Origin: Candidatus Binatia bacterium
GTDB taxonomy: Bacteria > Desulfobacterota > Binatia > UBA9968
Assembly: GCA_046757725.1 (NCBI GenBank)
Contig: JBHHYU010000008.1
Span: 230 to 64,229, forward strand
Length of the DNA: 64,000 bases
Reading direction: 5' to 3'
This document shows, piece by piece, positions 4,717 to 56,949 of this stretch. A program made the translations under genes and the position numbers. The notes beneath the pieces were generated by a model. It worked only from the letters and a program-made list of their open reading frames with translations. It ran no database searches and was not told the DNA's origin. Numbering within the stretch: the stretch's first letter is position 1; every line of letters starts with the position of its first letter.

Positions 4717-4717
4717 A

Positions 4718-5233: not shown

Positions 5234-5269
5234 CTACATCGTCAAGAACGACGCCAAGGGAAGGCGCTG

Positions 5270-6550: not shown

Positions 6551-7130
6551 AAATTTGCCGTTAAGGCTGCCTACCATGGTAGGGAAAACGATAAGGCAGC
6601 TGCAAAGCTGTTCTCGGCGTCGGAAGCGATTTGCTCTCAGAAGGGCCGGATTGTGCTTGGCTACCTTAGCGGGCCTGTTGTGGCTCGGTGTCAGTATGGC
6701 CTACGGATGGCCCTGGAGCACTGACATGGAGAAACAGCCTTCAGTCAAGCCACAGGAGGCACCCCTAGCGCCACCGCCCAACTCGATTCCAAGGAAAGGC
6801 AGAGAGCCGCGCATGAATCGGATTGAGGCGGGAAAGCGGTTGCGCAATCCCATAGACCCAACGGCCATGTCAGTTGAACACGGCAAGAAGCTTTTTCAGG
6901 TCTACTGCGCCCTTTGTCACGGACCCGATGCGAAGGGCGGGGGCCCTGTGGCCAAAAAATTTGTCCCACCTCCCGACCTGACTTTGGAAATATTCCGCAA
7001 GCGAACCGACGGCTTTATCTACGCAACCATTCGAGACGGAGGACCCCTCATGCCCAGCCAAGCGGAGGCCGTTTCTCCAAAAGAAAGATGGGACATCGTC
7101 AACTACCTCCGCACCTTGCAGGAGAAGTAA
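6510..7130 (+). CDS. actE: Monohaem membrane-anchored cytochrome c (ActE-like)
   Basis: Single CALCHG motif and an N-terminal TM anchor preceded by an Arg-rich stretch. The true start is probably an internal ATG (6543 or 6576), because the 6510 start overlaps actF by 40 bp. Confidence 0.55.
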   Translation: MKQMLLKKSHPMFRNLPLRLPTMVGKTIRQLQSCSRRRKRFALRRAGLCLATLAGLLWLGVSMAYGWPWSTDMEKQPSVKPQEAPLAPPPNSIPRKGREPRMNRIEAGKRLRNPIDPTAMSVEHGKKLFQVYCALCHGPDAKGGGPVAKKFVPPPDLTLEIFRKRTDGFIYATIRDGGPLMPSQAEAVSPKERWDIVNYLRTLQEK

Positions 7131-7425
7131 CGTACGTGAGTGCCTTAGAGAGCTTCTCCCTCCCGTTGCAAATCGAATAGTCTTTCGCAAATTTGGGAAA
7201 AGAGAGATTTTTAATTCTCAACCTCCGGAAGCATCACCCTAATCATCACCAGTTTATCCCAAGTTTTAACGTTCAGGTCAGTGGTATGTTTCTTGCGAAC
7301 CCCTCTTTCTAACTACCCGAGCAAAGGACCTCGCGGCATGGTGACCGAAACGTGTTTGGCGGCTAAATTGGATCGTACCGACAGGCACCGGTATCAGAGT
7401 GCAAACCAATGGTGGAGGCTTCTTC

Positions 7426-8154
7426 ATGCGAACAGTAAGATGGTTATTTATGCTCCTCTCGCTCTTTTTTTGGGGGTGGACGTTTTTCCCGAGCGCTGAG
7501 GCTATTGCCTTTGAACGGGACTCCCGATGGAACAGCTCTTACTCAAAGGGGCGCTCACTGTATCTTATTCAGTGCGCAGCCTGCCATGGCAAAAACGGTG
7601 AGGGCGGCGTCAGTCTCCCTCTTAACTTGCAAAGCTTTCTTGCCGTAGCCCCTCCGGGCTACATCCGTCGTTCGATTTTCTACGGGCGACTACCGCGGCC
7701 AATGGCCGCCTTCGGGACTATTCTCAAAAAGGAAGAGATCGAGTCCATCGCCGCCTATGTACGTTCCTGGCAGCTCCAGGATTACAAGGGCATTGACATG
7801 AATCGTGTGGCCGGTTCCGTATCCAACGGCAAGTTTCTCTTTGATGGAATCTGTTCCGGGTGTCACGGGAGGGACGGTGTCGGCGGCCCCCAAGTGGGTG
7901 GCGGTCACGTCACCAGCTCCATTGCCGGATATACCGGGCCCTCACTTAATAACCAGGGCTTTCTGAAGTCGGCCACGGACGGATATATCAAAGCGACCCT
8001 GATGTATGGCCGCGTTGGTACCCCCATGGGTTCCTACCTGAAGGGCAAGCAAGGTTTTGTCGAGCTGAGCGAGGAAGAGATCAGCGACATCGTGGCATAC
8101 ATTCGCTCCTGGGAAAAGCGAGACGCCGGGCCACGAGATCCCTGGAGAGAATGA
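7426..8154 (+). CDS. Dihaem class-I c-type cytochrome (periplasmic, Sec signal)
   Basis: Two CxxCH motifs (CAACHG, CSGCHG) and an N-terminal signal peptide (MRTVRWLFMLLSLFFWGWTFFPSAEA). A GGTGGAGG ribosome-binding site precedes the ATG at 7426. Confidence 0.7.
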   Translation: MRTVRWLFMLLSLFFWGWTFFPSAEAIAFERDSRWNSSYSKGRSLYLIQCAACHGKNGEGGVSLPLNLQSFLAVAPPGYIRRSIFYGRLPRPMAAFGTILKKEEIESIAAYVRSWQLQDYKGIDMNRVAGSVSNGKFLFDGICSGCHGRDGVGGPQVGGGHVTSSIAGYTGPSLNNQGFLKSATDGYIKATLMYGRVGTPMGSYLKGKQGFVELSEEEISDIVAYIRSWEKRDAGPRDPWRE

Positions 8155-10840: not shown

Positions 10841-11437
10841 GTGAGATTGAAATGGAACCGGCGGCGTTTCCTGCGAGCTGCCGGAGGCGCACTGGGAACG
10901 GCAATACTCTGGGTTCTAGCGGGTGCGCGGGTATCCGCGCGGAGTGGGTCGAACTTCGCCAACCTGCTACGTCCTCCGGGGGCGTTGCCCGAACCTGAGT
11001 TTCTCCAGCGCTGCATCCGCTGCACCCGGTGCGCGGGCGTGTGTCCGAACACCGCCATTCGGATGGCCGGTTTCAGCTCTGGGCTCCACAATCTCAATAC
11101 CCCTTACATCATGCCCCGGGTGCAGGCCTGTATGCTCTGCATGAAATGCACCGAAGTCTGCCCGACGGGCGCGCTGCATCAAATCCCGGCGGATAACAAA
11201 CAGATCACTACCCGTGTCAAGATGGGGCGCGCCTATGTGGATAAGTCCATGTGTTATTCCTATCAAAAACGCACCTGCGGGGTCTGTATTCGCGCCTGTC
11301 CGTTCCCCGGTCTCGCCATGAAGACGGGGCTATACGAGCAGCCCATCGTGACCGACTCCTGTGTCGGATGCGGCCTGTGCGAGCGTGCCTGCATCCACAT
11401 TCCGCAGGCGATTCGAATCGTTCGGGAGGAGGCCTGA
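10841..11437 (+). CDS. NapG-like periplasmic ferredoxin (4x 4Fe-4S, Tat signal)
   Basis: GTG start with a GGAGGA ribosome-binding site. The RRRFLRAAGGALG motif is a Tat signal. Four CxxCxxCxxxCP-type cluster motifs are present. Confidence 0.65.
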   Translation: MRLKWNRRRFLRAAGGALGTAILWVLAGARVSARSGSNFANLLRPPGALPEPEFLQRCIRCTRCAGVCPNTAIRMAGFSSGLHNLNTPYIMPRVQACMLCMKCTEVCPTGALHQIPADNKQITTRVKMGRAYVDKSMCYSYQKRTCGVCIRACPFPGLAMKTGLYEQPIVTDSCVGCGLCERACIHIPQAIRIVREEA

Positions 11438-11441
11438 AGTC

Positions 11442-12968
11442 ATGACTCGATGGCCCCGCCGCATGGTGCAAATCTCGGCACTCGCCTTCCTTATCGCGGT
11501 GCCTGCGCTGAACTACGGCGGTGTCCTCTACCAACAGTACGGAAAAAACGGTTACCACAAGATTGCCCTCATGGGGACACTTTTCGAACGCGGGTTATAC
11601 AATCTCTTCTCAGCGATGGCGCGGGTGCTACCCAATCCGGCGGGAAACTCAACGAGTCTTGTGGGGGGATACGGCTCTTTTTCGATATTCGGTATCTCTT
11701 TCCTCGATCCTGTGATTGCCCTCGAGACGGTGCTTCGCGTGCAGGCAGTCTGGACCGCTATCCTCGTAGGGGCTGCGCTGCCACTGCTGCTGGCCGTGCT
11801 GTTGGGGCGGATCTTCTGCGGATGGCTTTGTCCCGTGAACACGGTGCTCGAAGGTTTCGACCTGCTTCGAAAGCGCGCCCTGCCGCGCATTGGCTTCCGG
11901 CCGCTGGACGTGGCAGTGCCGCGCTGGTTGAAGTGGGTTCTCTTGTTCGCCGGTGTGACCGTAGCCGTCCTGGCGGATCTCACCATCTGGACGCACTTAC
12001 TCCCCCATGTCCAGATCGGCCGGGACGTTTTTTCTCTTATCGTGTTCGGTACGACCACGGTGGGCGCTCCTCTCCTCCTAGGAATCATCCTGGCAGAGAT
12101 TCTCTTTTCCCGCAGGGTATGGTGCCGGTCGCTTTGCCCCACCGGGGCGCTACTCGGCCTGGCGGCCCTGGTAGCTCCACTACGAGTGCGTCGGGCGAAG
12201 GAACCGTGCCTTAAAGGCTGTGCGGCCTGTGCCCAGGCCTGCCCCATGGCACTGAATCCCGCAAAGCCGTTCCCGGTAGCTGAATGCTACAACTGCGGGC
12301 TCTGTGTCGCCACTTGCCCGGCTCAGTTGCTCACTCTCGGCTTCCCGCGGCCGCGCTGGGTCGTTGTTCAAGAGATATTTCCCATGTTTAAGCGCATGAC
12401 GCTTTTTGTCCTCACTGCTACCCTGCTTCTCTCCTCACCGGCGGCGGCCCACCACATGCGCGGCCAGCCACACTACGGGTATGCCGAGAACTATCCACAG
12501 GTCCCTACGAAGGAAACCCGCGCGCACATCGGCAACTTTGATATCACGATCGTCAGTTATTTCTTCGAAGGCCTGCGGCGTGACCTCTCGGACACCCCAC
12601 ACGACGTCCAGTTCTATGTAGGTCTTAGTGACAGCCGGACCCATCAGAGCTACATGGGCCCGCTTTCCATTGAGTTGTGGCGTGGGGGGCAGCGCATCGC
12701 CACCTTCAACCACACGCACCCCTTCGAAGAAGCAGTCTATCGCATTCGTCAGGCAGTTCCCGGACCGGGGACATATGAGATTCGCCTCGCAGGGGGTGGG
12801 ATCAGCGGAGTCGTCACCGTGGATGTGGAGGGAGAATCAGCTCAGTTGACGCCTTTCATCCTGACGGGGGCTGCCGCCCTGCTCGGCCTTCTTATTTTCT
12901 TAAACCGCCGACGGAGGCAGAGAAGGAGAGTCTATGTGGCATCTAATGCGCAAAACCATGTCCAATAG
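11442..12968 (+). CDS. NapH/MauN/CcoG-like polytopic membrane ferredoxin with an in-frame ~200-aa C-terminal extension (His-rich periplasmic domain plus terminal TM anchor)
   Basis: TM helices, a GWLCP motif and two C-terminal 4Fe-4S motifs (CLKGCAACAQACP, CYNCGLCVATCP). The frame then continues without a stop through a hydrophobic segment (MFKRMTLFVLTATLLLSSPAAAHHMRGQPHYGY...), a ~150-aa soluble domain and a final TM helix followed by an RRRRQRRR stretch. The ATG at 11442 has a GGGAGGAGG ribosome-binding site. Confidence 0.55.
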   Translation: MTRWPRRMVQISALAFLIAVPALNYGGVLYQQYGKNGYHKIALMGTLFERGLYNLFSAMARVLPNPAGNSTSLVGGYGSFSIFGISFLDPVIALETVLRVQAVWTAILVGAALPLLLAVLLGRIFCGWLCPVNTVLEGFDLLRKRALPRIGFRPLDVAVPRWLKWVLLFAGVTVAVLADLTIWTHLLPHVQIGRDVFSLIVFGTTTVGAPLLLGIILAEILFSRRVWCRSLCPTGALLGLAALVAPLRVRRAKEPCLKGCAACAQACPMALNPAKPFPVAECYNCGLCVATCPAQLLTLGFPRPRWVVVQEIFPMFKRMTLFVLTATLLLSSPAAAHHMRGQPHYGYAENYPQVPTKETRAHIGNFDITIVSYFFEGLRRDLSDTPHDVQFYVGLSDSRTHQSYMGPLSIELWRGGQRIATFNHTHPFEEAVYRIRQAVPGPGTYEIRLAGGGISGVVTVDVEGESAQLTPFILTGAAALLGLLIFLNRRRRQRRRVYVASNAQNHVQ

Positions 12969-13615: not shown

Positions 13616-13738
13616 ACCTTTGTGCTTCCAGGATTTCCGCCTACCGGCCTGTGAAAAAGTTTCCATAAGCGGCCATTTTTTTCTTGACAAAGGGTTAGCG
13701 ATGCTTTAAACAGACTCATAAGAGTTAAACGACCTATT

Positions 13739-13749
13739 AGGTCTTTTGA
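13739..13749. promoter_or_regulatory. Exact 11-mer AGGTCTTTTGA, copy 1 (overlaps the Rrf2 RBS region, -17..-7 from ATG)
   Basis: An identical 11-mer recurs at 14258-14268 in the next intergenic region. A CTATTAG/CTAATAG half-site lies just 5' of each copy. Confidence 0.4.
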
Positions 13750-13755: not shown

Positions 13756-14229
13756 ATGAGTGAAATGAAGTTAGGGCGGGAAAGTTCATACGGAATCGAA
13801 GGCCTGTTGACTCTGGCTGCAAGGCCGCGGGGCACTGCGATGCTCTTAAGCGACATTGCCGCCGATAGAGGGATCCCCCAGAGTTTTCTCGCTAAAATCT
13901 TTCAGAAACTCACCAGATACGGAATCGTCCATTCTTTCCGTGGGGTCGTCCGCGGTTACGCCCTCGCTCGGCACCCAAAAGAGATCAAGGTTAAAGAGAT
14001 CCTATTGGCGATCGAAGGGCCTGATCTTTTCGAGCGTTGTATCTTCTGGAGCGATCGCTGTGCCGATCGCAACCCCTGTCCTCTGCATGACCAGTGGAAG
14101 CAATTAAAACATCAGTTCATCGGAGGATTGATGGAACGGACAACCCTGGCCGACCTGATAAAAAAAAGACCAGCCAGGCCTACGACGGCCAAGCGTCACT
14201 TTGTTCAGGACGCAAGGCGGGGAAGTTAA
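13756..14229 (+). CDS. Rrf2-family transcriptional regulator (NsrR/IscR-like, putative Fe-S cluster ligands)
   Basis: The N-terminal wHTH is typical of Rrf2. The motif CIFWSDRCADRNPCP gives C-x6-C-x5-C spacing as in NsrR/IscR. The gene sits between the Nap-like and NXR-like modules. Confidence 0.7.
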   Translation: MSEMKLGRESSYGIEGLLTLAARPRGTAMLLSDIAADRGIPQSFLAKIFQKLTRYGIVHSFRGVVRGYALARHPKEIKVKEILLAIEGPDLFERCIFWSDRCADRNPCPLHDQWKQLKHQFIGGLMERTTLADLIKKRPARPTTAKRHFVQDARRGS

Positions 14230-14257
14230 AAATTTTTGTGTCTCTAATAGACTAAAA

Positions 14258-14268
14258 AGGTCTTTTGA
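14258..14268. promoter_or_regulatory. Exact 11-mer AGGTCTTTTGA, copy 2 (128 bp upstream of the nxrC-like start)
   Basis: This is an exact repeat of 13739-13749. Chance recurrence of an 11-mer within ~300 bp of intergenic DNA is improbable. Confidence 0.4.
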
Positions 14269-14395: not shown

Positions 14396-15976
14396 ATGAG
14401 ACGGTGTTTTTTGTTGATTGCCGGTGTGTTCCTCCTGTTACGTGCAGCAGGAGTCGGGACCTCCGCCGAATTAAAATCTCCTCCCCCTTCACCTAAACTC
14501 CTTGCCCTCGGAAAGCAGACTTACAACAAACATTGTGTCGCGTGCCATGGAGTGAATGGACGAGGAAATGGAGAAGCGGCCTACCTTCTCTATCCCAAAC
14601 CCCGTAATTTTGTGGCCGCAAGGTACCGCCTAGTGTCGACCTGGGAACGCATCCCGACCGACCAGGATCTCTTCAACACGATTTCGCGCGGCATGCCGGG
14701 ATCAGCCATGCCCTCGTGGGGGCATCTCTCGTCAAAGCAGCGCTGGGGGCTTGTTCATTACGTAAAGTCATTTGCTGAAAGGCCACTAACCACCAAGCCT
14801 CAGAGGAGACCAGGGGCTGATGGCAGCGATGGTCAAGGGGTCATCTATGTTGGGCCGGAGCCCTCTTACGATGCCACTGCCAAGGCGCGTGCTAAAGAGC
14901 TTTTCCGAGAGGCGTGTGCCTCCTGTCACGGTGCAACGGCAAAAGGGGATGGCGTGAAAAAGCAGTGGGACGTGGAAGGCTTTCCCACGCGCCCACGTGA
15001 TCTCACAGCCGGCGTTTTCAAGGGAAGTCCGGACCCCTTGCAACTGTACCGCCGCATCATCGCAGGCATTCCGGGTAGCCCCATGCCGATGAACAGCTGG
15101 GCTTATGGTAATGACGCCTGGCACCTCGTTCACTTTATCCGCTCCCTCTCAAGTGATGAGCAACGAGAGCGCGTGGAGATGAAAAAATTTCAGATCGTGG
15201 CCACGCGCGTAAAGAAGGTACCGGACAATCCCGACTCCGGCACTTGGCGTCTCGCCCAACCGGTAAACCTTCATCTGATGCCGCTCTGGTGGCGCTCCCA
15301 GCGGCCGGAAGAATTGACCGTGCGGGCACTCTACGACAGGAAGGAATTGGCTTTACTTTTAGTCTGGGCCGATCAGACGCATGACCATACAGCGATCCGG
15401 CCACAGGATTTCCGGGATGCTGCAGCGGTAGAGTTCTCGCTTACCAGGGATCCTCCTTTTTTCGCCATGGGCGAGAAGGGGAAATCCGTCAATATCTGGA
15501 TGTGGAAATCGGAGCGGCAGGCAGACCTTGAACCTGCCTTTCAGGACCTTGACAAGATCTACCCTAACCTCGGCATCGACTCTTACCCTAATCTATTACG
15601 CTCGCCGGTGGAACAGCCTTCGCGTAACGCGCTCACGCTCAAGTCAGACAAGACCTTCGTGACCGGATGGGGGGCGGGGAATATTGTTTCTGACCCCCAG
15701 CGCAAGAGCCCAGCCGAGGATCTCACGGCGCAGGGATTCGGCACGCTGCGAGCACGACCGCGGATCGACCAGAAGGTCAATGCGAAGGGCATTTATGGTG
15801 TCGGTGCCTACCGGGTCATCTTCCGGCGGGCGTTAAAGCCCAGCGGTAAGCACGCGCCGAAGTTTCAACCCGGCACGGCTGTGCCGGTGGCCTTTGCGGT
15901 CTGGAACGGCAGCGCCGGAGACCGTGACGGAAAAAAATCTGTGACCATCTGGCAGGAGCTGAAGATCGCAAAATGA
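14396..15976 (+). CDS. NxrC-like gamma subunit: Sec-signal, N-terminal dihaem cytochrome c fused to a C-terminal EB_dh-like (type-II DMSO-reductase haem-b subunit) domain
   Basis: Strong GGGAGGAGG ribosome-binding site and a signal peptide. Two cbb3/c552-type haem motifs (CVACHG, CASCHG) are followed by ...WNHLVHFIRSL. The C-terminal ~260 aa ends in VAFAVWNGSAGDRDGKKSVTIWQEL, which recalls from memory the gamma subunits of EbdC/SerC/NxrC enzymes. The gene lies immediately upstream of the alpha subunit. Confidence 0.55.
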   Translation: MRRCFLLIAGVFLLLRAAGVGTSAELKSPPPSPKLLALGKQTYNKHCVACHGVNGRGNGEAAYLLYPKPRNFVAARYRLVSTWERIPTDQDLFNTISRGMPGSAMPSWGHLSSKQRWGLVHYVKSFAERPLTTKPQRRPGADGSDGQGVIYVGPEPSYDATAKARAKELFREACASCHGATAKGDGVKKQWDVEGFPTRPRDLTAGVFKGSPDPLQLYRRIIAGIPGSPMPMNSWAYGNDAWHLVHFIRSLSSDEQRERVEMKKFQIVATRVKKVPDNPDSGTWRLAQPVNLHLMPLWWRSQRPEELTVRALYDRKELALLLVWADQTHDHTAIRPQDFRDAAAVEFSLTRDPPFFAMGEKGKSVNIWMWKSERQADLEPAFQDLDKIYPNLGIDSYPNLLRSPVEQPSRNALTLKSDKTFVTGWGAGNIVSDPQRKSPAEDLTAQGFGTLRARPRIDQKVNAKGIYGVGAYRVIFRRALKPSGKHAPKFQPGTAVPVAFAVWNGSAGDRDGKKSVTIWQELKIAK

Positions 15977-16058
15977 AGAGCGCAGCAGAAATAGAATTCA
16001 CAAAGCGGAATGGGGCAGGGGGTCTTGATGCTGACCAGTGGATTCCAGAAGGAGAGTG

Positions 16059-19000
16059 ATGACCATGAACGATGAAAAACTACAAGATCGGAATCGCTTG
16101 ACGCGCCGGGATTTCCTGCGCTGGATGGGTATCGGGAGCGGCACAGCAGTACTCAGCACAGGGTTGCCGTTGAGGCTTCTGGCTGCTGCGCGCCCCGGCG
16201 AGAATCCCCTCGCTGGTTCGGTGGACCGTAACTGGGAAAAAATATATCGCAATCAGTACAAGTATGATCGTGTTTTCGACTGGGTCTGCTCCCCCAATGA
16301 CACTCATGCCTGTCGAGTACGGGCCTATGTCCGAAATGAGATCGTGACGAGACTCGGATCAACCTACGACTACCAGACTTACGCCGACCTTTACGGTAAC
16401 AAAGCCACCCCGAACTGGAACCCACGGCAGTGCGCCAAGGGCTATACTTTCCATCGGGTGATCTACGGACCCTACCGGCTCAGGCATCCCATCGTCCGCA
16501 AAGGCTGGAAGGCCTGGGCCGACGCCGGCTTCCCTGAGCTGAGACCGGAAAACAAAGCGAAGTACATGTTCGACAACCGCGGCCAGGACGAGTTTGTTCA
16601 GATCTCCTGGGAGGATGCGCTTCAAAGCATCGCCAAGGCCATCGTCGCCATTTCGACACGTTACAGCGGTGAGGGGGGAAAGAGGCGGTTGCTGGCCCAG
16701 GGCTACCAGCCGGAAATGGTTGAGGCTGCCGCGGGTGCCGGCACTCGTTGCGTCAAGATGCGTGGAGGCATGGGCCTTCTAGGGGTCATCGGCAAATACG
16801 GGTTGTACCGGCTCAACAATTCGCTTGCGCTCCTCGATGCGAAGATTCGAGGGGTAGGTCCAGAAAAAGCACTAGCTGGCCGCAACTGGTCTAATTATAC
16901 CTGGCACGGAGATCAGGCGCCCGGCCACCCATGGGTGCACGGACTGCAAACATCGGACTGCGATTTCAACGACTTGCGCTTCACCAAGCTCATTATCTTG
17001 GACGGAAAGAATCTCGTAGAAAATAAGCTACCCGATGCCCACTGGTTCATCGAGTGCATGGAGCGTGGGGGAAAAATTGTCGTTATCGCCCCGGAATACG
17101 GACCTCCTGCAACCAAGGCTGATTACTGGATTCCCATTAGGCCCGAGACCGACACGGCACTCTGGCTTGGTGTTACTAAACTGATTTTCGAAAACAAGTG
17201 GTACGATGAGACATTCGTCAAACGCCATACCGATTTCCCCCTCCTCGTCCGTACCGATACGTTGAGGCGTCTGCGGGCACATGAGATCTTCCCGAACTAT
17301 TCCTCCAACCTCTCCCCTGATGGGCCTTCGATGAAGATCCAAGGTCTTACACGGGAGCAACACTCCAAACTCGGTGATTTTGTAATCTGGGACCAGAAAA
17401 ACAATGGCCCAGCCGCGCTCACGCGAGATGATGTGGGAGAGACGATGGCTAAAAAGAGGCTGGACCCAACCCTGGAAGGAACGTTCAAGGTCAAGCTTGT
17501 CGACGGTAAAGAGGTGGAGGTCGCCACGCTTTGGACGCTCTATCGGACCCATCTTCGGGACTATGACCTTGACACGGTATCAGAGATCACGCATGCACCC
17601 AAGAACCTGATCGAACAGCTTGCCAAGGACATCGGAGCGATAAAACCAGTTGCGATCCACCAGGGCGAGGGGATCAATCACTGGTTCCACGGTACCGAGA
17701 TGAACCGTGCAGCCTACCTGCCACTGATGCTAACCGGCAACATTGGCAGGCCGGGAGCCGGGGGCCATACATGGGCAGGAAATTACAAAGCAGGTCTTTT
17801 TCAGGGTTCCCCATGGACCGGGCCGGGCTTTAAGGGGTGGGTAGCCGAGGACCCATTCCACCCGAATTTGGACCCCAAGGCCCATGGAAAAAACGTAAAG
17901 ATCCATGGCTACACTAAGGGCGAGGAGCCAGCCTACTGGAACCATGGGGACCGGGCATTGATTCTCAACACACCGAAGTTCGGCCGTAAGAATTTTACCG
18001 GCGAGACCCACATGCCAACACCGACCAAAGCCATTATCTTTAACAACGTTAACCTGATCAATAATGCCAAGTGGGCCTACGGGATGATTAAGAACGTCAA
18101 CCCCAACATCGAGATGATCGTCTCGCTGGATATTCAGATGACTGCCTCTATTGAGTATGCAGACATTGCGCTGCCAGCGAATAGCTGGATGGAGTTTGAA
18201 GGGTTGGAGATGACGGCGAGCTGCTCAAATCCCTTCTTGCAGATCTGGAAGGGAGGTATTTCACCGGTGTTTGATAGCAGGGATGACCTGACGATTCTGG
18301 CTGGCATCGCCGGCGAGCTTGCCGAGATTACGGGAGAGAGCCGCTTTCGGGATCATTTTAAGTTCGCTGCGCCCGAACAGCGCGGGATCTATATCCAGCG
18401 CCTGCTCGACACCTGCACGACCACGGCAGGGTATAAACTCAAGGACATTATGGCCGGCAAGTATGGACCCCCGGGGGGCAGCCTGTTGAACTTCCGCACC
18501 TACCCTCGCATCCCCTTCTATGAGCAGATCCATGATTCAGAGCCGTTCCACACGGACACGGGGAGACTCCACGCCTATGCTGATATCCCTGAGGCAATCG
18601 AGTACGGGGAAAACTTCATCGTGCATCGGGAGGGACCAGAGGCTACGCCCTACTTGCCCAACGTCATTGTCAGTTCAAACCCTCACATTCGCCCGGAGGA
18701 TTACGGGATCCCTCTAACCGCGGAACACTGGGATGAACGCACCGTCCGCAACGTCAAGCTTCCATGGAGCAGAGTCAAAGAGACGAAAAATTTCCTGTGG
18801 GAGAAAGGCTTCCATTTCTACTGCCTCACTCCGAAGACACGCCACCGGGTCCACAGTGGTTGGTCAAACGTCGATTGGCACATGCTCTATGACTCAAACT
18901 TCGGCGACCCTTACCGTCTTGATAAGCGTGCGCCAACGGTGGGAGAGCACCAGCTCCATATCAATCCTCAGGCAGCACGGAAATTAGGGATCAACGATGG

Positions 19001-19538
19001 CGATTACGTTTACGTGGATGCCAACCCGGCCGACCGCCCCTACCTCGGCGCAACGCCCAGCGATCCTTTCTACAAGGTATCGCGCTGCATGCTGCGAGTG
19101 AAATACAACCATGCTTATCCCTATAACATCGTCATGATGAAGCACGCCCCGTTCATCGCCACAGAAAAGAGCGTCAAGGCACACGAAACACGCCCCGACG
19201 GCCGCGCCCTATCGGAAAATACCGGCTACCAGGCCAATCTCCGCTACGGCTCCCAGCAATCCGTCACCCGTAATTGGCACATGCCAATGCACCAAACGGA
19301 CAACCTTTTTCACAAGTCAAAGGTCTTTATGGGGTTTATCTTTGGCGGTGAAGCCGACAACCACGCGATCAACACCGTACCGAAGGAAACCCTGGTGCGC
19401 GTCACGAAGGCTGAGGACGGAGGCCTTGGCGCCAAAGGCATCTGGAAACCGGCCACCACCGGCTACACGCCGGACAACGAGAACGACTTCATGAAACGAT
19501 ATCTGGCAGGGGAGCTGGTCAAGGTGCCGGGCAAATAG
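16059..19538 (+). CDS. nxrA: Tat-exported NarG-type molybdopterin oxidoreductase alpha subunit, periplasmic NXR/NarG-like (NxrA candidate, ~1160 aa)
   Basis: Twin-arginine motif TRRDFLRWMGIGSG. The N-terminal Cys/His FS0-type motif is VCSPNDTHACRV. The size matches periplasmic NxrA (~1150 aa) rather than type-II enzymes (~920-980 aa) or cytoplasmic NarG (~1250 aa). A gamma-like subunit lies upstream and a beta subunit downstream. The alternative ATG at 16065 has better ribosome-binding-site spacing. Confidence 0.7.
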   Translation: MTMNDEKLQDRNRLTRRDFLRWMGIGSGTAVLSTGLPLRLLAAARPGENPLAGSVDRNWEKIYRNQYKYDRVFDWVCSPNDTHACRVRAYVRNEIVTRLGSTYDYQTYADLYGNKATPNWNPRQCAKGYTFHRVIYGPYRLRHPIVRKGWKAWADAGFPELRPENKAKYMFDNRGQDEFVQISWEDALQSIAKAIVAISTRYSGEGGKRRLLAQGYQPEMVEAAAGAGTRCVKMRGGMGLLGVIGKYGLYRLNNSLALLDAKIRGVGPEKALAGRNWSNYTWHGDQAPGHPWVHGLQTSDCDFNDLRFTKLIILDGKNLVENKLPDAHWFIECMERGGKIVVIAPEYGPPATKADYWIPIRPETDTALWLGVTKLIFENKWYDETFVKRHTDFPLLVRTDTLRRLRAHEIFPNYSSNLSPDGPSMKIQGLTREQHSKLGDFVIWDQKNNGPAALTRDDVGETMAKKRLDPTLEGTFKVKLVDGKEVEVATLWTLYRTHLRDYDLDTVSEITHAPKNLIEQLAKDIGAIKPVAIHQGEGINHWFHGTEMNRAAYLPLMLTGNIGRPGAGGHTWAGNYKAGLFQGSPWTGPGFKGWVAEDPFHPNLDPKAHGKNVKIHGYTKGEEPAYWNHGDRALILNTPKFGRKNFTGETHMPTPTKAIIFNNVNLINNAKWAYGMIKNVNPNIEMIVSLDIQMTASIEYADIALPANSWMEFEGLEMTASCSNPFLQIWKGGISPVFDSRDDLTILAGIAGELAEITGESRFRDHFKFAAPEQRGIYIQRLLDTCTTTAGYKLKDIMAGKYGPPGGSLLNFRTYPRIPFYEQIHDSEPFHTDTGRLHAYADIPEAIEYGENFIVHREGPEATPYLPNVIVSSNPHIRPEDYGIPLTAEHWDERTVRNVKLPWSRVKETKNFLWEKGFHFYCLTPKTRHRVHSGWSNVDWHMLYDSNFGDPYRLDKRAPTVGEHQLHINPQAARKLGINDGDYVYVDANPADRPYLGATPSDPFYKVSRCMLRVKYNHAYPYNIVMMKHAPFIATEKSVKAHETRPDGRALSENTGYQANLRYGSQQSVTRNWHMPMHQTDNLFHKSKVFMGFIFGGEADNHAINTVPKETLVRVTKAEDGGLGAKGIWKPATTGYTPDNENDFMKRYLAGELVKVPGK

Positions 19539-19572
19539 AGGGAGCTTGCAAGATAGACCGAGGAGAACTCAG

Positions 19573-19869
19573 ATGCCTTATGACGATCCTGATCCCACGG
19601 ATCCCAATATCTTGGTGGGGGTAGCCCTGCCGGCCGATGCGGAAGTAATATGCGAGATGGCCTACGTCTTTGCCGAAGAATTTATCCGAATGGGGTACGA
19701 TCGAGAGCGAGTGCTGCAGGTTTTCAAGAACCCGTTTTACACCGGTCCGCACAATGCTTACCGGGACCTGGGCGAAGAGAAAGTCCAGTCCATTATCGAG
19801 GAGTGTATCCACGCATGGGGCGGTGTCTGTTTTGTTGATTGCGACGACGGAAAGGAGACAGAACCATGA
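19573..19869 (+). CDS. Small acidic Cys-containing protein of unknown function, translationally coupled to nxrB
   Basis: 98 aa with a GAGGAG ribosome-binding site upstream. Its stop overlaps the nxrB start (ATGA). Cys residues include a C-terminal CFVDCDD. It occupies the entire nxrA-nxrB intergenic space. Confidence 0.5.
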   Translation: MPYDDPDPTDPNILVGVALPADAEVICEMAYVFAEEFIRMGYDRERVLQVFKNPFYTGPHNAYRDLGEEKVQSIIEECIHAWGGVCFVDCDDGKETEP

Positions 19870-21131
19870 GTCAGGTTTACAACTGGCAACTCGGCCGCAA
19901 GATGGATTATCCCTTTCCGGCCGCATATCCGAAGCGGCAGTTCGCCTTTGTCTTTAATATCAACCGCTGCATCGCCTGCCAGACCTGTACCATGGCCTGC
20001 AAATCAACCTGGACCTTCAGCAAGGGCCAGGAACATATGTGGTGGGCCAACGTCGAGACCAAACCTTATGGTGGTTATCCCCAGTTTTGGGACATGAAGA
20101 TCCTGCGGCTTCTCGAGGAAGCCAACCCCGGAGGGCAGCAATGGTCGGGAACCCCTTCCGGGAACTCCAAAAACCCCTACGGTCGTTTTGACGGACAAAC
20201 TATTTTTGAGGCTAAGAAAGCGCTTCAGCCCGGGAGCTCACGGGTCCTAGGTTACCTTCCCACCGACGAGGAGTGGAACTTTCCCAACATCTATGAGGAC
20301 AATCCGCTCGGCAAGAAAGGGGTGCCCAACCAATTCGACACAACCGGAGTGGAGCTGCCCGTACACAAGACCTGGTTCTTTTATCTGGCGCGTATTTGCA
20401 ACCACTGTACCTACCCCGGGTGTCTGGCAGCCTGCCCGCGCAAGGCCATTTACAAACGCCCTGAGGACGGCATCGTCCTCATCGACCAGAAGGAGTGCCG
20501 TGGCTACCGTAAGTGCGTGGAGGCCTGCCCTTACAAAAAGGCAATGTATCGGGGCAATACCCGAGTGACCGAGAAATGCATTGCCTGCTACCCACGAGTC
20601 GAGGGTAAAGACCCCGAGAGTGGTGGCCAGCCTATGGAAACGCGTTGCATGGCGGCGTGCGTGGGCCAGATGCGCATGCAGGGCCTAGTCAAAATGAACC
20701 GGGACGGCACCTGGACCGAAGACCGACACAATCCGATCTACTACCTCGTGCATGTGGCCAAAGTAGCCCTACCGCTTTATCCCGAACTCGGCACTTTACC
20801 CAATGGTTACTATATTCCTCCCCGCTGGGTACCGCGACCTTATCTTCGGCAGATGTTCGGTCCAGGCGTTGACAACGCGATCGAGCGTTATATTAACCCG
20901 GACCGAGAACTCCTTGCGGTCCTGCAGCTTTACCGGCGCTCCAACCGAATCATCTTCCGCTATGAAATTAAGAAGGGGCCAAAGATCTATGAGGCCACGC
21001 ACCGCGGCCGGAAAGTGACGCTGTACAACGACACCATTATCGCTTATGGCCGAAACAACAAGGAGATCTTCCGAACCACTGTTGAGGAGCCGGTTTATGT
21101 ACGGTCGAAAAAACATGCCAACTCGATATGA
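19866..21131 (+). CDS. nxrB: NarH/NxrB-type Fe-S beta subunit (4 clusters, NxrB-like insertion), 421 aa
   Basis: The N-terminus MSQVYNWQLGRKMDYPF...FAFVFNINRCIACQTCTMACKSTW resembles periplasmic NxrB. Four Cys clusters are present, including the inserted CIACYPRVEGKDPESGGQPMETRCMAAC. A GGAAAGGAGA ribosome-binding site lies upstream. Confidence 0.75.
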   Translation: MSQVYNWQLGRKMDYPFPAAYPKRQFAFVFNINRCIACQTCTMACKSTWTFSKGQEHMWWANVETKPYGGYPQFWDMKILRLLEEANPGGQQWSGTPSGNSKNPYGRFDGQTIFEAKKALQPGSSRVLGYLPTDEEWNFPNIYEDNPLGKKGVPNQFDTTGVELPVHKTWFFYLARICNHCTYPGCLAACPRKAIYKRPEDGIVLIDQKECRGYRKCVEACPYKKAMYRGNTRVTEKCIACYPRVEGKDPESGGQPMETRCMAACVGQMRMQGLVKMNRDGTWTEDRHNPIYYLVHVAKVALPLYPELGTLPNGYYIPPRWVPRPYLRQMFGPGVDNAIERYINPDRELLAVLQLYRRSNRIIFRYEIKKGPKIYEATHRGRKVTLYNDTIIAYGRNNKEIFRTTVEEPVYVRSKKHANSI

Positions 21132-21217
21132 AGAGATAAAGAGCCCGTATTCCGTTCGTTTTCATTTCCTCCTGCGCAACGTCCGGCGCCTTCAGGTCAC
21201 CCACAGTTCAGGAGATC

Positions 21218-22024
21218 GTGATGAAACCTGAAAATCTGAGAAAAGAACAAGAGGTCAGGGAGGGCGATCTAGCCCTCTGCCGAGCCACTCTGTATAGCGC
21301 GCTGGCGCTCGGCTTCCGACCGCCCACAGAGGAAACATTAACTCGCCTCGCCTCTACGGAGGGTGCAACGGTTTTGGCCGGCGCAGCGGCGCTGCTGGAC
21401 GGACAGCACCAGGTAACCCTCACCTCCGCCGCAGAGGATCTCAGCAAAATAAAAAAAACCTCCGTATCAGAGCTCGAAGTCTCATTCTGGCGCCTATTCG
21501 GCCATACCGTACGCGGCCAGGTACCCCTATATGAAACCGAGTACGGTGTTGATTCTCTTTTCCAGCAACCGCAGGAATTGGCAGACCTATTAGGTTTTTA
21601 CCACGCATTCGGTCTCGCCTTAGACCCGAAAGAACACGAACGGGCAGATCATGTTAGTTGCGAACTCGAGTTTCTCTCCTTTCTTGCCCTCAAAGAGGTC
21701 TACGGCTTGGAGCAACGGGACGACCCTATGCTGGAAGAGACACGTAAGGCCGCGCGCACCTTCTTACGGGATCATCTCGGTCGGTTCGCGCCTGCCTTCA
21801 CCAGGAAGCTTTCTCGTGAAGACCGGGAGGGCTTTTACGGGGCTCTAGGTGAGCTCTGCGCGAGGTTTGTGATCGAAGATTGTACCCGACTCAGCGTGTC
21901 GGTCGGCCCAGAGAGTTTAGGCTTGCGTCCAGCTGCTGAAGATCAAGTGCCGATGGCATGTGACAATGGAGCGGAGTGCACTGAGTTGTCCGGCGCTTGC
22001 GAACAGGAAATAATGGAAAAATGA
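21218..22024 (+). CDS. TorD/NarJ/DmsD-family redox enzyme maturation chaperone (delta subunit)
   Basis: Contains the family motif E-H-E-R-A-D-H-V-S-C-E-L-E-F-L-S-F-L (DHxxxELEFLxxL), typical of TorD/NarJ. The gene lies downstream of the beta subunit. Confidence 0.7.
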   Translation: MMKPENLRKEQEVREGDLALCRATLYSALALGFRPPTEETLTRLASTEGATVLAGAAALLDGQHQVTLTSAAEDLSKIKKTSVSELEVSFWRLFGHTVRGQVPLYETEYGVDSLFQQPQELADLLGFYHAFGLALDPKEHERADHVSCELEFLSFLALKEVYGLEQRDDPMLEETRKAARTFLRDHLGRFAPAFTRKLSREDREGFYGALGELCARFVIEDCTRLSVSVGPESLGLRPAAEDQVPMACDNGAECTELSGACEQEIMEK

Positions 22025-22977
22025 GCCCTGGGGTTCTTCTCAGTTACGACTCCAGTTTAATGGAAGAGGCTGTCTTCCTCGCTTTGCAGGGACATCCGGC
22101 CGCCGTGGAATTTTTCGGTGAGCGCAACAAACTCTACGAAATCAGTGATTCGGAGGAACAAGAGCGTGCCTTTCGGGATTTCCATTGCGCCTGGTTTACC
22201 CGTTTAGAATTCGCCGACCAGATCGAAAAGGCAGTCAACGAACACCCTTTTCTTACTTCCAGTGTCAGGCGCTGTGTCGTAGCTTGCGTCTCAAGAAAGC
22301 AAGATGAAGGAGCTGAACTCTTTGTCGGTTCCCAAGCAGAAAACAGCGAAAAAGAGCGTCGTACGGTGCGAATCCTATTGAGACCTGAATCATTTCTTGA
22401 CTCCCTTACTCTACTAAGACTGCTTCGCCATGAACTTTTGCACATCACGGACATGCTCAGCACTAGCTTCGGCTATGACCCGATCCTACCGAAGGCACCA
22501 GGCGGGCCCGCCTATGACCAATTACTACAAGACCGCTACCGTGTCCTGTGGGATGCAACGATAGATGGTCGAATGGTGCGGCGCGGCTGGGCGCCCGATT
22601 CGATCCGTGTAGAGCGCCTTTGTGAATTCCGCCATGCCTTTCCCATGTTCAGGGAAGCGGCCTCTCAGCTGTTTGATCGCTTTTTCGACCAAGAGCCACA
22701 TACGCATGGCGAATTGGTTACATTCGCCTGCAACCCCATGGCCGCCGTAGATGACTCACCAATGACGCGCAGCCCCGGAAGCCGGTGCCCTCTTTGCGGT
22801 TTTCCAACGTATGCGTTCGAGCCGGCGCCTGAGCACCTGCCTCTAGAGGTCCTCTCTCAGATCACTCAAGACTTTCCGCGGTGGCGCCCAACTCAGGGTC
22901 TTTGCACCCAGTGTGCGGATCTTTACCGGGCACGTTGGGCCTCGTCTCGTGCAGAGAGTCCTTTTCCGGGAACATAG
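22021..22977 (+). CDS. Hypothetical protein with HExxH motif and C-terminal CxxC...CxxC zinc-ribbon, translationally coupled to the chaperone gene
   Basis: The ATGA overlap with the chaperone gene's stop indicates translational coupling. The motif LLRHELLHITD carries HExxH. The C-terminus holds CPLCGFPTYAF...CTQCADLY. I recognise no known family. Confidence 0.45.
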   Translation: MSPGVLLSYDSSLMEEAVFLALQGHPAAVEFFGERNKLYEISDSEEQERAFRDFHCAWFTRLEFADQIEKAVNEHPFLTSSVRRCVVACVSRKQDEGAELFVGSQAENSEKERRTVRILLRPESFLDSLTLLRLLRHELLHITDMLSTSFGYDPILPKAPGGPAYDQLLQDRYRVLWDATIDGRMVRRGWAPDSIRVERLCEFRHAFPMFREAASQLFDRFFDQEPHTHGELVTFACNPMAAVDDSPMTRSPGSRCPLCGFPTYAFEPAPEHLPLEVLSQITQDFPRWRPTQGLCTQCADLYRARWASSRAESPFPGT

Positions 22978-23082: not shown

Positions 23083-24612
23083 GTGATGGCTAAGGTCTAT
23101 GTCGCCGGCGTGGGAATGACAAAATTCGGGAAGAGCCCTCAATCGCTGGTTGAGCTTTTTTGTGAAGCTGCTTCCCGCGCCCTCTCAAACTCATCGTTCC
23201 AGGAAATGGATGCCTTGTACATTGGCGCCATGAACCCCGAACAGTTTACGGGAGAGAGCAATATCGCGTCGCATATCGTCGATGCCTTAGGTGGAACCGG
23301 TTTGCCCGCACTCAGGATAGAAACGGCCTCCTCCGCCGGGGCAGCGGCACTGCTCGCCGCATACCAGGCAGTGGCCTCGGGGTATTACCGGCGCGTTCTG
23401 GTGCTGGCTGGAGAAAAAATGACCCATCTCAGCACTAGCGCAACCACTCGGATTCTAGCTGAGGTCATCGACAGGCAAGAGCGACAGTGCGGGGCAACTA
23501 TGCCGGCCCTAGCAGCCATGATCACGGAAAAGTACCGAAAGAGATATCGTCTTTCGGCATCACGTCTGGAGCATATGCTTTGTCGCGTAGCGATGAAAAA
23601 TCACCGGAACGGCTCACACAACCCCCATGCGCAGTTTCAAAAACCTCTTTCGGAAAAGGCATACTTTTCGAGCAAGATGATCTCCACGCCACTCAGGCTT
23701 TATGATTGTGCGCCCATTACCGACGGCGCAGCAGCTGTGATCTTGACCTCGGAACATACGGACCTAGTTATCGCCGGCATAGGGCAGAGCACGGGGCCTG
23801 TCAGCCTTAGAGAGCGAGATTCTTTCACTTCCTTTCCCGCTACCCAGATTGCTGCTGCGAGGGCTTATGAGATGGCTGGTGTCTCCCCTAAGGACATCGA
23901 TTTTGCGGAAGTGCATGACGCCTTTACTCCATTTGAAATCATCGGTACGGAAGACCTAGGATTTTTTCCTCCTGGAAAAGGTGGTGAGGCTGTGGAGGCG
24001 GGAAAAACTGCCTTGGAAGGGTCACTGCCCGTCAACCCTTCGGGAGGTCTCAAATCCCGCGGGCATCCCGTGGGAGCAAGCGGTTTGGCACAGATCGTGG
24101 ATAACGCAGACCGACTAAGGGGAAACTCTGAGGCAAAGTCGCGACGCGAGGCCAAGAGGGCCTTGGCTCAAAGTATCGGGGGCCTAGCCGCCAACAACTT
24201 TGTGACCATCCTCGAGCGCAGTGACAGCTCGACTCAAGTCCAAAACCTATGGCCTCACCGGTACCCTCCCTCTTCCCTTCGGCGTCTTTCCCAACCTAAG
24301 TCGGATCACAAGGCGCCCGGCGATGAGGGTCGCATTGAAACGTTTACAGTTCTTCATGTCACCCCTGATGGCTTCCTTCCTCCTCTGGCACTTGCTCTCA
24401 TTCGTGACAAGCTCGGACGCCTCCATATGGCCCGGGGAGAGGATATCTCCCTTCTAAAAATCGGAAGAGAAGTGTACCTACGTCAAGGGGTGGATGGTTA
24501 TTATTTTACGGTAAAGAGCCACCTGCGTCGAGTCATGGATTCCATAGAAAAAGTTTTAGGGCGGCTTCCTCCATTGCCCCGAAGCAAAAAAACGGCTCAC
24601 GGCAAAAAGTAA
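23083..24612 (+). CDS. Thiolase-like (SCP-x/Ltp2-type) domain fused to a C-terminal DUF35 OB-fold domain; nucleophilic Cys apparently replaced by Ser
   Basis: The N-terminal KVYVAGVGMTKFGK and the GHPVGASG motif mark a thiolase fold. Where thiolases carry CxSG, this protein has ETASSAG. The C-terminal ~120 aa are OB-fold/DUF35-like (GRIETFTVLHV...). Confidence 0.55.
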   Translation: MMAKVYVAGVGMTKFGKSPQSLVELFCEAASRALSNSSFQEMDALYIGAMNPEQFTGESNIASHIVDALGGTGLPALRIETASSAGAAALLAAYQAVASGYYRRVLVLAGEKMTHLSTSATTRILAEVIDRQERQCGATMPALAAMITEKYRKRYRLSASRLEHMLCRVAMKNHRNGSHNPHAQFQKPLSEKAYFSSKMISTPLRLYDCAPITDGAAAVILTSEHTDLVIAGIGQSTGPVSLRERDSFTSFPATQIAAARAYEMAGVSPKDIDFAEVHDAFTPFEIIGTEDLGFFPPGKGGEAVEAGKTALEGSLPVNPSGGLKSRGHPVGASGLAQIVDNADRLRGNSEAKSRREAKRALAQSIGGLAANNFVTILERSDSSTQVQNLWPHRYPPSSLRRLSQPKSDHKAPGDEGRIETFTVLHVTPDGFLPPLALALIRDKLGRLHMARGEDISLLKIGREVYLRQGVDGYYFTVKSHLRRVMDSIEKVLGRLPPLPRSKKTAHGKK

Positions 24613-24616
24613 TTCT

Positions 24617-25294
24617 ATGATTAAGAGACACCCGACCCGCGTAGAGAAGGATTTCAGATCCCTGACGAGACTCCTGACTGAGAAGCTCAAGGACGCAATC
24701 GTGAAAGGGAAATTCTCCCCAGGGGAACGGCTTTCCGAGGAGAAACTCGCGTCGATGCTAAAAGTGAGCCGGGTACCACTGCGGGAGACCTTGCGTCGCC
24801 TGGAAGCTGAAGGTTATATCACCTTTCTCTTCAACAACGAAGTAACGGTCAGCAAACCGCCCGTGGAAGACATTCAAGACTACTACTCCATTGCCAGTGT
24901 CCTCGAAGGATTAGCGGCAAGGCTCGCTGTGGAGCAGGCCCGTCCTGAGGAGATTTCCCGCCTGAAGGAACTACACCAACTCCTGCGGCAGGCTTATCAA
25001 GCAAGGGACCTGGAACGGTACTTTGAAGCCAACAGCAACTTCCATCGCTTTATCGCTGAGATAGCAAGGAACGAGCATCTTTACCGACTCATAAATCAGA
25101 TGAGACACGAAATCCAAAAAGCCAGGATTCTTGCTCTGCAGATACCGCAGCGCCTTGATTATTCAATGCGGGAACACGACCAGATCCTCGACGCCTTCCT
25201 TAAAAAAAATCCTGAGTTAGCAGAAGTAACCGTCGTCAAACATCTGGATAACCAGAAGGACGCAATAAAACAGATGTTAGAAGCGGAAGCCTAG
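24617..25294 (+). CDS. GntR-family transcriptional regulator (HTH + FCD domain)
   Basis: The N-terminal motif SERKLASMLKVSRVPLRETLRRLEAEGYI is a GntR HTH. The C-terminal domain is alpha-helical and FCD-like. Confidence 0.7.
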   Translation: MIKRHPTRVEKDFRSLTRLLTEKLKDAIVKGKFSPGERLSEEKLASMLKVSRVPLRETLRRLEAEGYITFLFNNEVTVSKPPVEDIQDYYSIASVLEGLAARLAVEQARPEEISRLKELHQLLRQAYQARDLERYFEANSNFHRFIAEIARNEHLYRLINQMRHEIQKARILALQIPQRLDYSMREHDQILDAFLKKNPELAEVTVVKHLDNQKDAIKQMLEAEA

Positions 25295-48372: not shown

Positions 48373-48380
48373 GAAGAACC

Positions 48381-56465: not shown

Positions 56466-56467
56466 CT

Positions 56468-56947: not shown

Positions 56948-56949
56948 GA

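Follow-up and report, generated by a model that had tools for sequence, protein, structure and literature searches.

A six-gene cassette for a predicted soluble periplasmic enzyme of the nitrite oxidoreductase family in a Candidatus Binatia bacterium and in other phyla

The cassette and its genes

We analysed a 64-kb stretch of DNA from the metagenome-assembled genome of an uncultured Candidatus Binatia bacterium (GenBank assembly GCA_046757725.1, contig JBHHYU010000008.1, positions 230 to 64,229), called the window throughout; all coordinates are window positions. Between 14396 and 22977 its plus strand carries six co-directional open reading frames (ORFs), which code, in this order, for a gamma subunit, a molybdenum-binding alpha subunit, a small protein, an iron-sulfur beta subunit, a TorD-like chaperone and a protein with an HExxH motif. 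A preliminary description had proposed a module of this composition, related to periplasmic nitrite oxidoreductase (NXR), and all of its ORFs were confirmed on the plus strand in the order claimed. The successive gaps are 61, 34, -4, 86 and -4 bp, and the six genes therefore form a single operon. The same gene string is also present in the Logan assembly of SRR29324611.

The gamma gene (14396..15976) encodes 526 amino acids (aa) with two Pfam Cytochrom_C matches and one EB_dh match. The alpha gene, of the NxrA type with a molybdenum bis(molybdopterin guanine dinucleotide) cofactor (Mo-bisMGD), is an ORF of 1166 aa at 16038..19538 that opens with GTG 16038 and is classed as a molybdopterin oxidoreductase in the Pfam and NCBIfam searches; its start is probably ATG 16059, which lies behind a GGAG site and gives 1159 aa, close to the length of about 1160 aa first proposed. 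The small gene, listed mechanically with 107 aa, was refined to ATG 19573 and 98 aa (19573..19869), and the HExxH gene, listed with 326 aa, to ATG 22021 and 318 aa (22021..22977). These refined starts rest on ribosome-binding sites and on the NCBI calls for the identical proteins ACE5HC_02985 (small) and ACE5HC_03000 (HExxH). The beta gene (19866..21131; Fer4_11, 4Fe-4S dicluster) can be read as a longer ORF from 19839; from ATG 19866 it overlaps the stop of the small ORF by 4 bp and encodes 421 aa, exactly as described before. The chaperone of 268 aa, with its Nitrate_red_del/TorD match, is encoded at 21218..22024. An antisense ORF at 19519-19926 was discarded as an artefact, because the small ORF on the sense strand is the conserved one. 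No Rfam elements, riboswitches or tRNAs were found within the window, and promoter and terminator scans gave background-level signals only.

The alpha and beta subunits

The subunits were compared with all chains in the PDB, and identities were taken from BLASTP. Alpha scores 1830.8 bits against NXR-A of Kuenenia stuttgartiensis (7B04_B), about ten times its score against PcrA (190), EbdA (176) or NarG (115). It is 64% identical to the Kuenenia protein over 958 aa with two gaps, which places it within the level of identity seen among accepted periplasmic NxrA proteins: the Nitrospina protein shows 54-55% identity with its Nitrospira counterpart and 62% with the Kuenenia one. The residues named as ligands in K. 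stuttgartiensis NXR (KsNXR) by Chicano et al. 2021 (PMC8387239) are all in place, with Cys67, Asn70, Asp71, Cys75 and Asp275 of KsNXR-A corresponding to C77, N80, D81, C85 and D285. Thus the molybdenum ligand Asp (D285), to which the preliminary description had pointed as the residue to examine, is kept together with the substrate-facing Asn and the 3Cys/1Asp site of the iron-sulfur cluster FS0. Near the N-terminus of alpha, the motif TRRDFL is followed by a hydrophobic stretch and AAA, and aligns with the Kuenenia signal KLTRRAFL. We infer that alpha is exported to the periplasm by the twin-arginine translocation (Tat) pathway, as had been proposed.

Beta behaves in the same way. Its score against NXR-B (7B04_A) is 588.9 bits, with comparison scores of 195, 185 and 169, so that NXR-B scores about three times as high as PcrB, EbdB or NarH. 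The two proteins are 59% identical and colinear over their full length, and the 15 Cys residues of KsNXR-B map one-to-one onto the 15 Cys residues of beta (15/15). Beta has no signal peptide and is presumably co-exported together with alpha.

The fused gamma subunit

The gamma subunit combines a Sec signal, a dihaem cytochrome c (residues ~37-256) and a haem-b domain of the NxrC/EbdC type (~305-523). The haem-b domain expected of the third subunit is thus present, but the protein goes beyond a plain NxrC. Its N-terminal part reaches 131.7 bits with a dihaem cytochrome of Kuenenia (6H5L_B) and holds two CxxCH motifs, CVACH at 47 and CASCH at 174; the C-terminal part scores 87-89 bits against NXR-C (7B04_C) and 78.6 bits against Pfam EB_dh. 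The haem-b ligands Met155 and Lys305 of KsNXR-C are conserved. The sole hydrophobic segment of gamma is that at residues 2-24, and no membrane anchor or other hydrophobic segment was found in any subunit of the complex.

The chaperone and two accessory proteins

The chaperone matches Nitrate_red_del with 71.7 bits in Pfam, in agreement with the TorD/NarJ assignment made earlier, and scores 104.3 bits with TIGR03482, under the cut-off of 152.3. The two remaining proteins match no Pfam, NCBIfam or PDB sequence family and are annotated as 'hypothetical' in every source. The small protein lacks a signal peptide and consists of a disordered, acidic and Pro-rich N-terminus followed by a four-helix bundle, for which a fold search returned weak generic helical matches only. 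The HExxH protein, likewise predicted to be cytoplasmic, has an invariant H137-E138-x-x-H141-x-x-D144 motif in a putative zincin-like core and a C-terminal Cys4 ribbon (C256, C259, C295, C298). Because of their membership in the operon and their lack of export signals, both are read as maturation factors: the small protein is presumed to be a cytoplasmic assembly factor or a small partner, and the HExxH protein a cytoplasmic maturation factor.

Family assignment

These comparisons assign the enzyme to the periplasmic NXR family, and neither to the Clr/Ser/Pcr/Ebd type nor to cytoplasmic NarGHI, because the NXR scores dominate, the KsNXR ligands are conserved, and the curated cut-offs of the type-II, Nar and Ebd families are missed widely. 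The NCBIfam models of dimethyl sulfoxide (DMSO) reductase family type II (TIGR03479/03478/03477/03482) are missed by alpha (351.8 vs 984.75), beta (247.3 vs 480.7), gamma (122.9 vs 169.85) and the chaperone, those of EbdABC by a similarly wide margin, and the NarG and NarH equivalogs with 154.7 vs 1084.15 and 174.9 vs 524.05. The preference for the periplasmic NXR lineage over type-II DMSO reductases and NarGH, voiced in the preliminary description, therefore holds, and we have high confidence that the cassette encodes an NXR-type nitrite/nitrate oxidoreductase.

Distribution and phylogeny

Database searches retrieved 2557 alpha homologues at E<=1e-50, the top ones 80-90% identical and derived from metagenome-assembled genomes (MAGs) labelled Binatia, Rokubacteria/Methylomirabilota, KSB1, Acidobacteriota, Limnocylindrales and others. 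A species-representative genome collection yielded 533 loci; the locus counts given here and below cover the best 80 of these 533. Their hosts are Binatia/'Deltaproteobacteria', Methylomirabilota, Acidobacteriota, Gemmatimonadota, Latescibacterota, Eiseniibacteriota, Hydrogenedentota, Neomarinimicrobiota, Omnitrophota and Planctomycetota; the cassette spans more than 10 phyla. When the window proteins were searched with tblastn, the same order and strand were seen at every locus long enough to show the cassette. Alpha is present in 80 of the 80 loci, the small ORF in 78, gamma and beta in 75 each, the chaperone in 66 and the HExxH gene in 60, the genes absent from these counts being accounted for by contig ends. 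The fused gamma with exactly two CxxCH motifs was found in 65/65 complete homologues. Taken with the number of alpha homologues, this conserved synteny of every gene puts the cassette, as a predicted functional unit, far beyond chance. The arrangement is not peculiar to the source Binatia genome.

In a neighbour-joining tree of alpha, calculated without support values and without the NxrA proteins of Nitrospira, Nitrospina and Nitrotoga, the window groups with all 80 loci in a single clade, with Kuenenia NxrA just outside it and 60-65% identical to every member. Further out are representatives of SAR202/Chloroflexota and Gaiellaceae, at 43-45% identity. The cassette is self-contained and stands in varied genomic places, as would be expected if it had moved horizontally from phylum to phylum and been inherited vertically to some extent inside each.

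One MAG, DATMAM01 (Candidatus Acidiferrales), has two alpha copies on separate contigs (L031 and L066), 85% and 82% identical to the window protein; this duplication recalls the duplicated nxr operons of Nitrospina and Nitrospira.

Comparison with known systems

The closest characterised relative is NXR-ABC of K. stuttgartiensis (kustd1700/1703/1704; PDB 7B04; PMC8387239). Alpha and beta are 64% and 59% identical to their counterparts, the haem-b domain of gamma is homologous, and Asp275, Asn70, the 3Cys/1Asp FS0 site, the 15 Cys residues of beta and the Met/Lys pair on haem b are all conserved. Both enzymes have a Tat signal on alpha, and both are soluble and devoid of a membrane anchor, the window complex by prediction from sequence. 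Two small unannotated ORFs, kustd1701 and kustd1702, stand between nxrA and nxrB in Kuenenia and are likened to the small ORF of the cassette by their position. The differences lie in the third subunit and in the genomic setting. The window operon opens with the gamma gene, whose product includes a dihaem cytochrome c, in contrast to Kuenenia NXR-C, which carries haem b only. The Kuenenia genes belong to a cluster of 15 that also encodes NXR-T, a number of cytochromes and a bd-like oxidase, and not to a six-gene operon as described here. No NXR-T homologue was seen at the window operon, so that tubule formation is not expected. The hosts are also different, an anammox planctomycete on one side and a Binatia bacterium on the other, with the cassette clade branching outside Kuenenia in the neighbour-joining tree.

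The NXR of Nitrospina gracilis and Nitrospira (Lucker et al. 2013, PMC3578206) likewise has a periplasmic NxrA with a Tat motif and an NxrB without a signal peptide. These bacteria also have 'alternative NxrC' proteins, predicted to be soluble gamma subunits with one to three haem-c sites and a haem-b domain, and the gene set common to Kuenenia, Nitrospira and Nitrospina includes a TorD-like chaperone and a 'putative zinc finger' protein (PMC3578206); the accessory proteins of the window are likened to these by description alone. There, however, the alternative NxrC, chaperone and accessory genes are scattered or stand in other clusters (with nxrAB or nxrABC order), while here they make up one fixed operon. 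Moreover, Nitrospina and Nitrospira are proven chemolithoautotrophic nitrite oxidisers, unlike the hosts of the cassette.

Type-II enzymes, such as PcrAB (4YDD), EbdABC (2IVF) and the Ser, Clr and Ddh enzymes, share the general plan of a Tat-exported alpha-beta pair, a Sec-exported EB_dh haem-b gamma subunit and a TorD-like chaperone, and they too are soluble periplasmic complexes that use c-type cytochromes. They are, however, remote from the window enzyme in sequence, with 176-190 bits for alpha vs 1830 for NXR-A and all curated family cut-offs missed, and they have shorter subunits (alpha 899-976 aa, beta 333-352 aa). Ethylbenzene dehydrogenase differs further in its 3Cys/1His FS0 site.

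Members of the clade have been flagged as NXR or NXR-like in surveys of MAGs from Planctomycetota/KSB1, Rokubacteria/Methylomirabilota and aquifer bacteria (PMC10732223, PMC9562985, PMC8141241), and two of the loci, L002 and L016, come from one of those datasets. As far as the available portions of these reports go, their genes belong to the same enzyme clade, match Kuenenia NxrA strongly, reside in non-nitrifier hosts and are explicitly left without an assigned direction; they serve there as nxrA/B(C) markers, and the six-gene cassette, the fused gamma and the accessory proteins are not described in those portions. We found no paper in the open-access literature on the six-gene cassette as a unit, the clade-wide fused gamma or the two accessory proteins. 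The enzyme family itself is already known and structurally characterised, and the haem-c/haem-b gamma and the accessory gene set were noted in 2013. The earlier suggestion of an undescribed variant thus stands for the six-gene cassette as a unit, but not for the enzyme, which is widespread and already flagged as NXR or NXR-like.

Candidate regulator and genomic neighbourhood

The cassette is preceded by an associated, non-core gene for an Rrf2-family protein (13756..14229, plus strand). The protein scores 97.5 bits with Pfam Rrf2 and 104.2 with the superfamily model TIGR00738 (cut-off 73.3), falls below the equivalog cut-offs of NsrR (43.7 vs 182) and IscR (73.1 vs 207.55), and carries a Cys-x6-Cys-x5-Cys-x2-His cluster motif. 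It is a candidate regulator of the operon. A related gene stands near the cassette in 18/80 loci, and Rrf2 is the commonest family among the 150 nearest flank ORFs examined with Pfam (n=10). A perfect palindrome, GACCTATTAGGTC, lies at 13731-13743, 13 bp before the Rrf2 start, and a relative of it, AGACTAAAAAGGTCT, at ~14249-14263, between the Rrf2 and gamma genes; both copies are followed by AGGTCTTTTGA. The pair GACCTATTAGGTC/AGACTAAAAAGGTCT is a candidate operator for this protein. In the 63 other loci that were checked, the region ahead of gamma has no conserved copy of the palindrome GACCTATTAGGTC.

Further upstream, all on the plus strand, lies a respiratory island. Profile and sequence matches identify a cluster related to alternative complex III (ACIII) and Qrc at 29-7130, composed of a partial multihaem cytochrome c (29-367), a fused ActB/QrcB and QrcC-like pterin/Fe-S protein of 973 aa (466-3387), an NrfD/ActC protein (3388-4716), ActD (4718-5233), a further membrane protein with weak similarity to NrfD (5270-6550) and, last, a monohaem cytochrome c (6510-7130). 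Outside this cluster, a dihaem cytochrome c (7399-8154) precedes a divergent NapA-like molybdenum enzyme of 880 aa (8177-10819), after which come a NapG-like ferredoxin and a NapH-like membrane Fe-S protein of unusual length, 535 aa (10841-12968). The NapA-like enzyme has its best PDB matches among NapA proteins (267 bits) and the conserved context 'ARMCMTSAV' of the molybdenum ligand Cys, and it misses the NCBIfam NapA cut-off (322 vs 904). The NapA-like, NapG and NapH set lies ~3.5 kb upstream of the cassette. No ACIII or Nap genes were found within 10 kb of the cassette in any of the loci (0/80); they adjoin it only in this window.

The Pfam profile of the 150 nearest flank ORFs contains no recurrent terminal oxidase, denitrification or carbon-fixation genes. 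Besides Rrf2 regulators, the recurrent neighbours are genes of molybdenum cofactor synthesis (MoaA, MobB-FmdE, MoeA), with occasional CMD, hemerythrin and radical-SAM proteins. Clustering of the flanks into families gave mainly antisense-ORF artefacts, with Rrf2, CMD, hemerythrin, radical-SAM and MobB-FmdE genes in 5-15 loci. The artefacts arise at GC-rich loci, such as L062 (9818-13522 and 13596-15059, minus strand), where antisense ORFs of up to 1717 aa stand opposite alpha and beta; such long ORFs clustered as false 'families' in the ORF survey, which calls for caution with mechanical ORF lists.

A fusion of FmdE, DksA/TraR-type zinc-finger and MobB domains, linked to molybdopterin-guanine-dinucleotide synthesis, directly follows the HExxH gene in L005, L007, L008, L010, L014, L018 and L066, ~7.1-9.4 kb past the alpha start. 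In loci of Omnitrophota and Planctomycetota, the genes after the cassette include MoaA and MoeA. The window has none of these at the cassette. Hemerythrin-domain, CMD (AhpD-like), radical-SAM/SPASM and Pfam-less multi-pass membrane proteins occur near the cassette in 5-8 loci each, upstream of it in L002, L004, L010, L017, L044, L050 and others, often alongside an Rrf2 gene, and may be accessories related to redox or nitric oxide (NO) stress. Directly downstream of the cassette in the window (23083-25294, plus strand) are genes for a thiolase of 509 aa with a C-terminal OB-fold-like extension and a GntR/FCD regulator. The same pair follows the cassette in the Binatia loci L018 (12219-14442) and L051 (10642-12861), with ~65% and 58-63% identity, an indication that gene order around the cassette is locally conserved in Binatia.

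Proposed mechanism

In the working model, alpha would receive Mo-bisMGD and the FS0 cluster in the cytoplasm, aided by the TorD-like chaperone, and the small helical and the zincin-like/Cys4 proteins may help in this assembly. The loaded alpha would then be exported by Tat, with beta carried along, while gamma would be exported separately by Sec and receive one b haem and two c haems. Electrons would travel from the molybdenum centre through FS0, clusters FS1-4 of beta, haem b with its Met/Lys ligands and the two c haems of gamma to periplasmic c-type cytochromes, or in reverse; the final partners are probably soluble or membrane-bound c-type cytochromes. Because no subunit is a membrane anchor, the nitrite/nitrate pair would exchange electrons with the cytochrome c pool, without direct contact with quinones.

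We expect the enzyme to work in both directions, as does Kuenenia NXR. Its main role in this facultative aerobe may be the oxidation of nitrite, as an auxiliary supply of electrons or as a means of nitrite removal, feeding cytochrome c oxidase, with nitrate reduction possible under anoxia.

Working direction

The best overall explanation, though a tentative one to which we give slightly under an even chance, is a soluble periplasmic NXR-type nitrite:nitrate oxidoreductase that leans towards nitrite oxidation. Nitrite oxidation as the main direction in vivo is by itself put nearly, not quite, at evens; nitrate reduction as the main direction is also a serious possibility, which we hold at somewhat less than an even chance, and the remaining probability belongs to another substrate or to none. 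The preliminary description had cautioned that oxidase and reductase could not be told apart from the sequence; the caution was well placed, and genomic context is no decider either.

Several lines of evidence point to nitrite oxidation. The only members near Kuenenia NxrA with a known physiology are nitrite oxidisers and anammox bacteria, and the haem-c-bearing alternative NxrC proteins have been proposed as acceptors of nitrite-derived electrons (PMC3578206). In this genome nitrate reduction is predicted to be already served by the NapA-like enzyme with NapG/NapH. The commonest neighbour of the cassette is a regulator of the Fe-S-type Rrf2 family, which includes NO and nitrite sensors.

Other observations weigh against this overall explanation or its lean. 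The function of the clade is read from sequence alone, and so are the Tat and Sec export, the loading of haem and the roles of the two accessory proteins. Nitrification is not known from the hosts (Binatia, Methylomirabilota, Acidobacteriota and others), and no terminal oxidase or carbon-fixation gene is recurrent among the 150 flank ORFs nearest to the cassette. The Nap/ACIII neighbourhood is weak evidence because it is unique to this genome, and the Rrf2 protein stays under the NsrR cut-off (43.7 vs 182). KsNXR-ABC, a soluble enzyme that works in both directions in vitro, has a rate of 61 nmol/min/mg for nitrite oxidation and one of 1.5 umol/min/mg, ~25x faster, for nitrate reduction, in both cases with artificial electron partners. 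Finally, a metaproteomic study took a Binatia 'NarG' as a sign of nitrate reduction.

The last two points equally favour the foremost alternative, in which the cassette would encode mainly a respiratory, cytochrome-c-dependent periplasmic nitrate reductase. Electrons would pass from quinol through ACIII or bc1 to c-type cytochromes, the gamma haems and molybdenum, where nitrate is reduced to nitrite, and the enzyme would resemble selenate and (per)chlorate reductases, which belong to its superfamily. Soluble type-II enzymes with a Met/Lys haem-b gamma subunit (SerABC, PcrAB and also Clr) run reductively with cytochrome c donors, and their common architecture with the cassette enzyme speaks for a reductive role here as well. 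This alternative would also suit a plug-in module with variable flanks in heterotrophic, facultatively anaerobic phyla, its position in the window within a respiratory island with an ACIII-like complex and c-type cytochromes, and the occurrence of nitrate reducers within the wider NxrA/NarG clade. On the other hand, a NapAGH-like nitrate reductase is already next door, the nearest enzymes of known physiology belong to nitrite oxidisers, the ACIII adjacency is not conserved, and nirK, nirS, nor and nrf genes are not recurrent beside the cassette. We regard a mainly nitrate-reducing enzyme as plausible, if short of an even chance.

The enzyme of Thermogutta terrifontis was considered as an anchor for the direction and rejected as a close comparator, because it is a deep-branching NarGHI with NarI and a bc1 neighbour. 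The literature on Limisphaera and Lacipirellula was uninformative on direction.

Alternative affiliations

An affiliation outside the NXR family is improbable. The enzyme could in principle be a type-II DMSO reductase family member that only resembles NXR and acts on chlorate, perchlorate, selenate or an organic compound, since in NCBIfam its three subunits and its chaperone each score best with a generic model of 'DMSO reductase family type II', and gamma matches EB_dh. These matches are, however, far below the curated cut-offs, for alpha and beta in particular; similarity to NXR-A and NXR-B exceeds that to PcrA/B or EbdA/B about tenfold and threefold; the active-site Asn, the molybdenum ligand Asp and the unusual 3Cys/1Asp FS0 site of KsNXR are kept, and the alignment with KsNXR-A needs only two gaps in 958 residues. 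A misread cytoplasmic, membrane-bound nitrate reductase of the NarGHI type, a reading encouraged by homologues labelled 'nitrate reductase alpha subunit' by JGI and other sources, is effectively refuted by the NarG and NarH scores (154.7 vs 1084 and 174.9 vs 524), the Tat motif on alpha, the lack of NarI or any other membrane subunit, and the predicted secretion of gamma as a haem-b/haem-c protein.

Implications

In the accepted view, organisms produce nitrate only by oxidising nitrite, and few lineages are credited with doing so. An NXR as near to the anammox enzyme as that of Nitrospina, encoded by a compact mobile operon in hundreds of non-nitrifier genomes, leaves two readings. Under one, nitrate production is taxonomically much broader than assumed; under the other, metagenomic 'nxr' markers systematically mis-assign nitrate reducers as nitrifiers. 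Either outcome alters the interpretation of nxrA/nxrB counts in soils, aquifers and sediments.

The more far-reaching proposition, that the cassette clade gives heterotrophs in more than 10 phyla a true capacity for facultative nitrite oxidation and that the accessory proteins are new dedicated NXR assembly factors, we consider rather doubtful. The phyla concerned may include Binatia, Methylomirabilota, Acidobacteriota, Gemmatimonadota, Latescibacterota, Omnitrophota and Planctomycetota. If true, soils, aquifers and sediments would be home to a large guild of nitrate producers that has gone unrecognised.

Heterologous expression of the anammox enzyme has not been possible, because anammox bacteria are not genetically manipulable. 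With six genes, no membrane subunit and its own chaperone, the cassette is a realistic target for heterologous expression.

Other features of the window

Downstream, a stretch on the minus strand (47284-58752) holds genes for a CrtC-like hydratase (47284-48372), a UbiD-family decarboxylase (48381-49721), an XdhC-like maturation protein (51133-52251) and a large molybdenum cofactor-binding subunit of the xanthine-dehydrogenase/CO-dehydrogenase family (54099-56465), the last of these being the third type of molybdenum enzyme within the 64-kb window. GC content is 50-58% throughout the window, and the cassette does not stand out as a compositional island. From ~26 kb to 64 kb the GC skew stays negative, down to -0.20 per 2-kb bin, which coincides with the change to mostly minus-strand genes.

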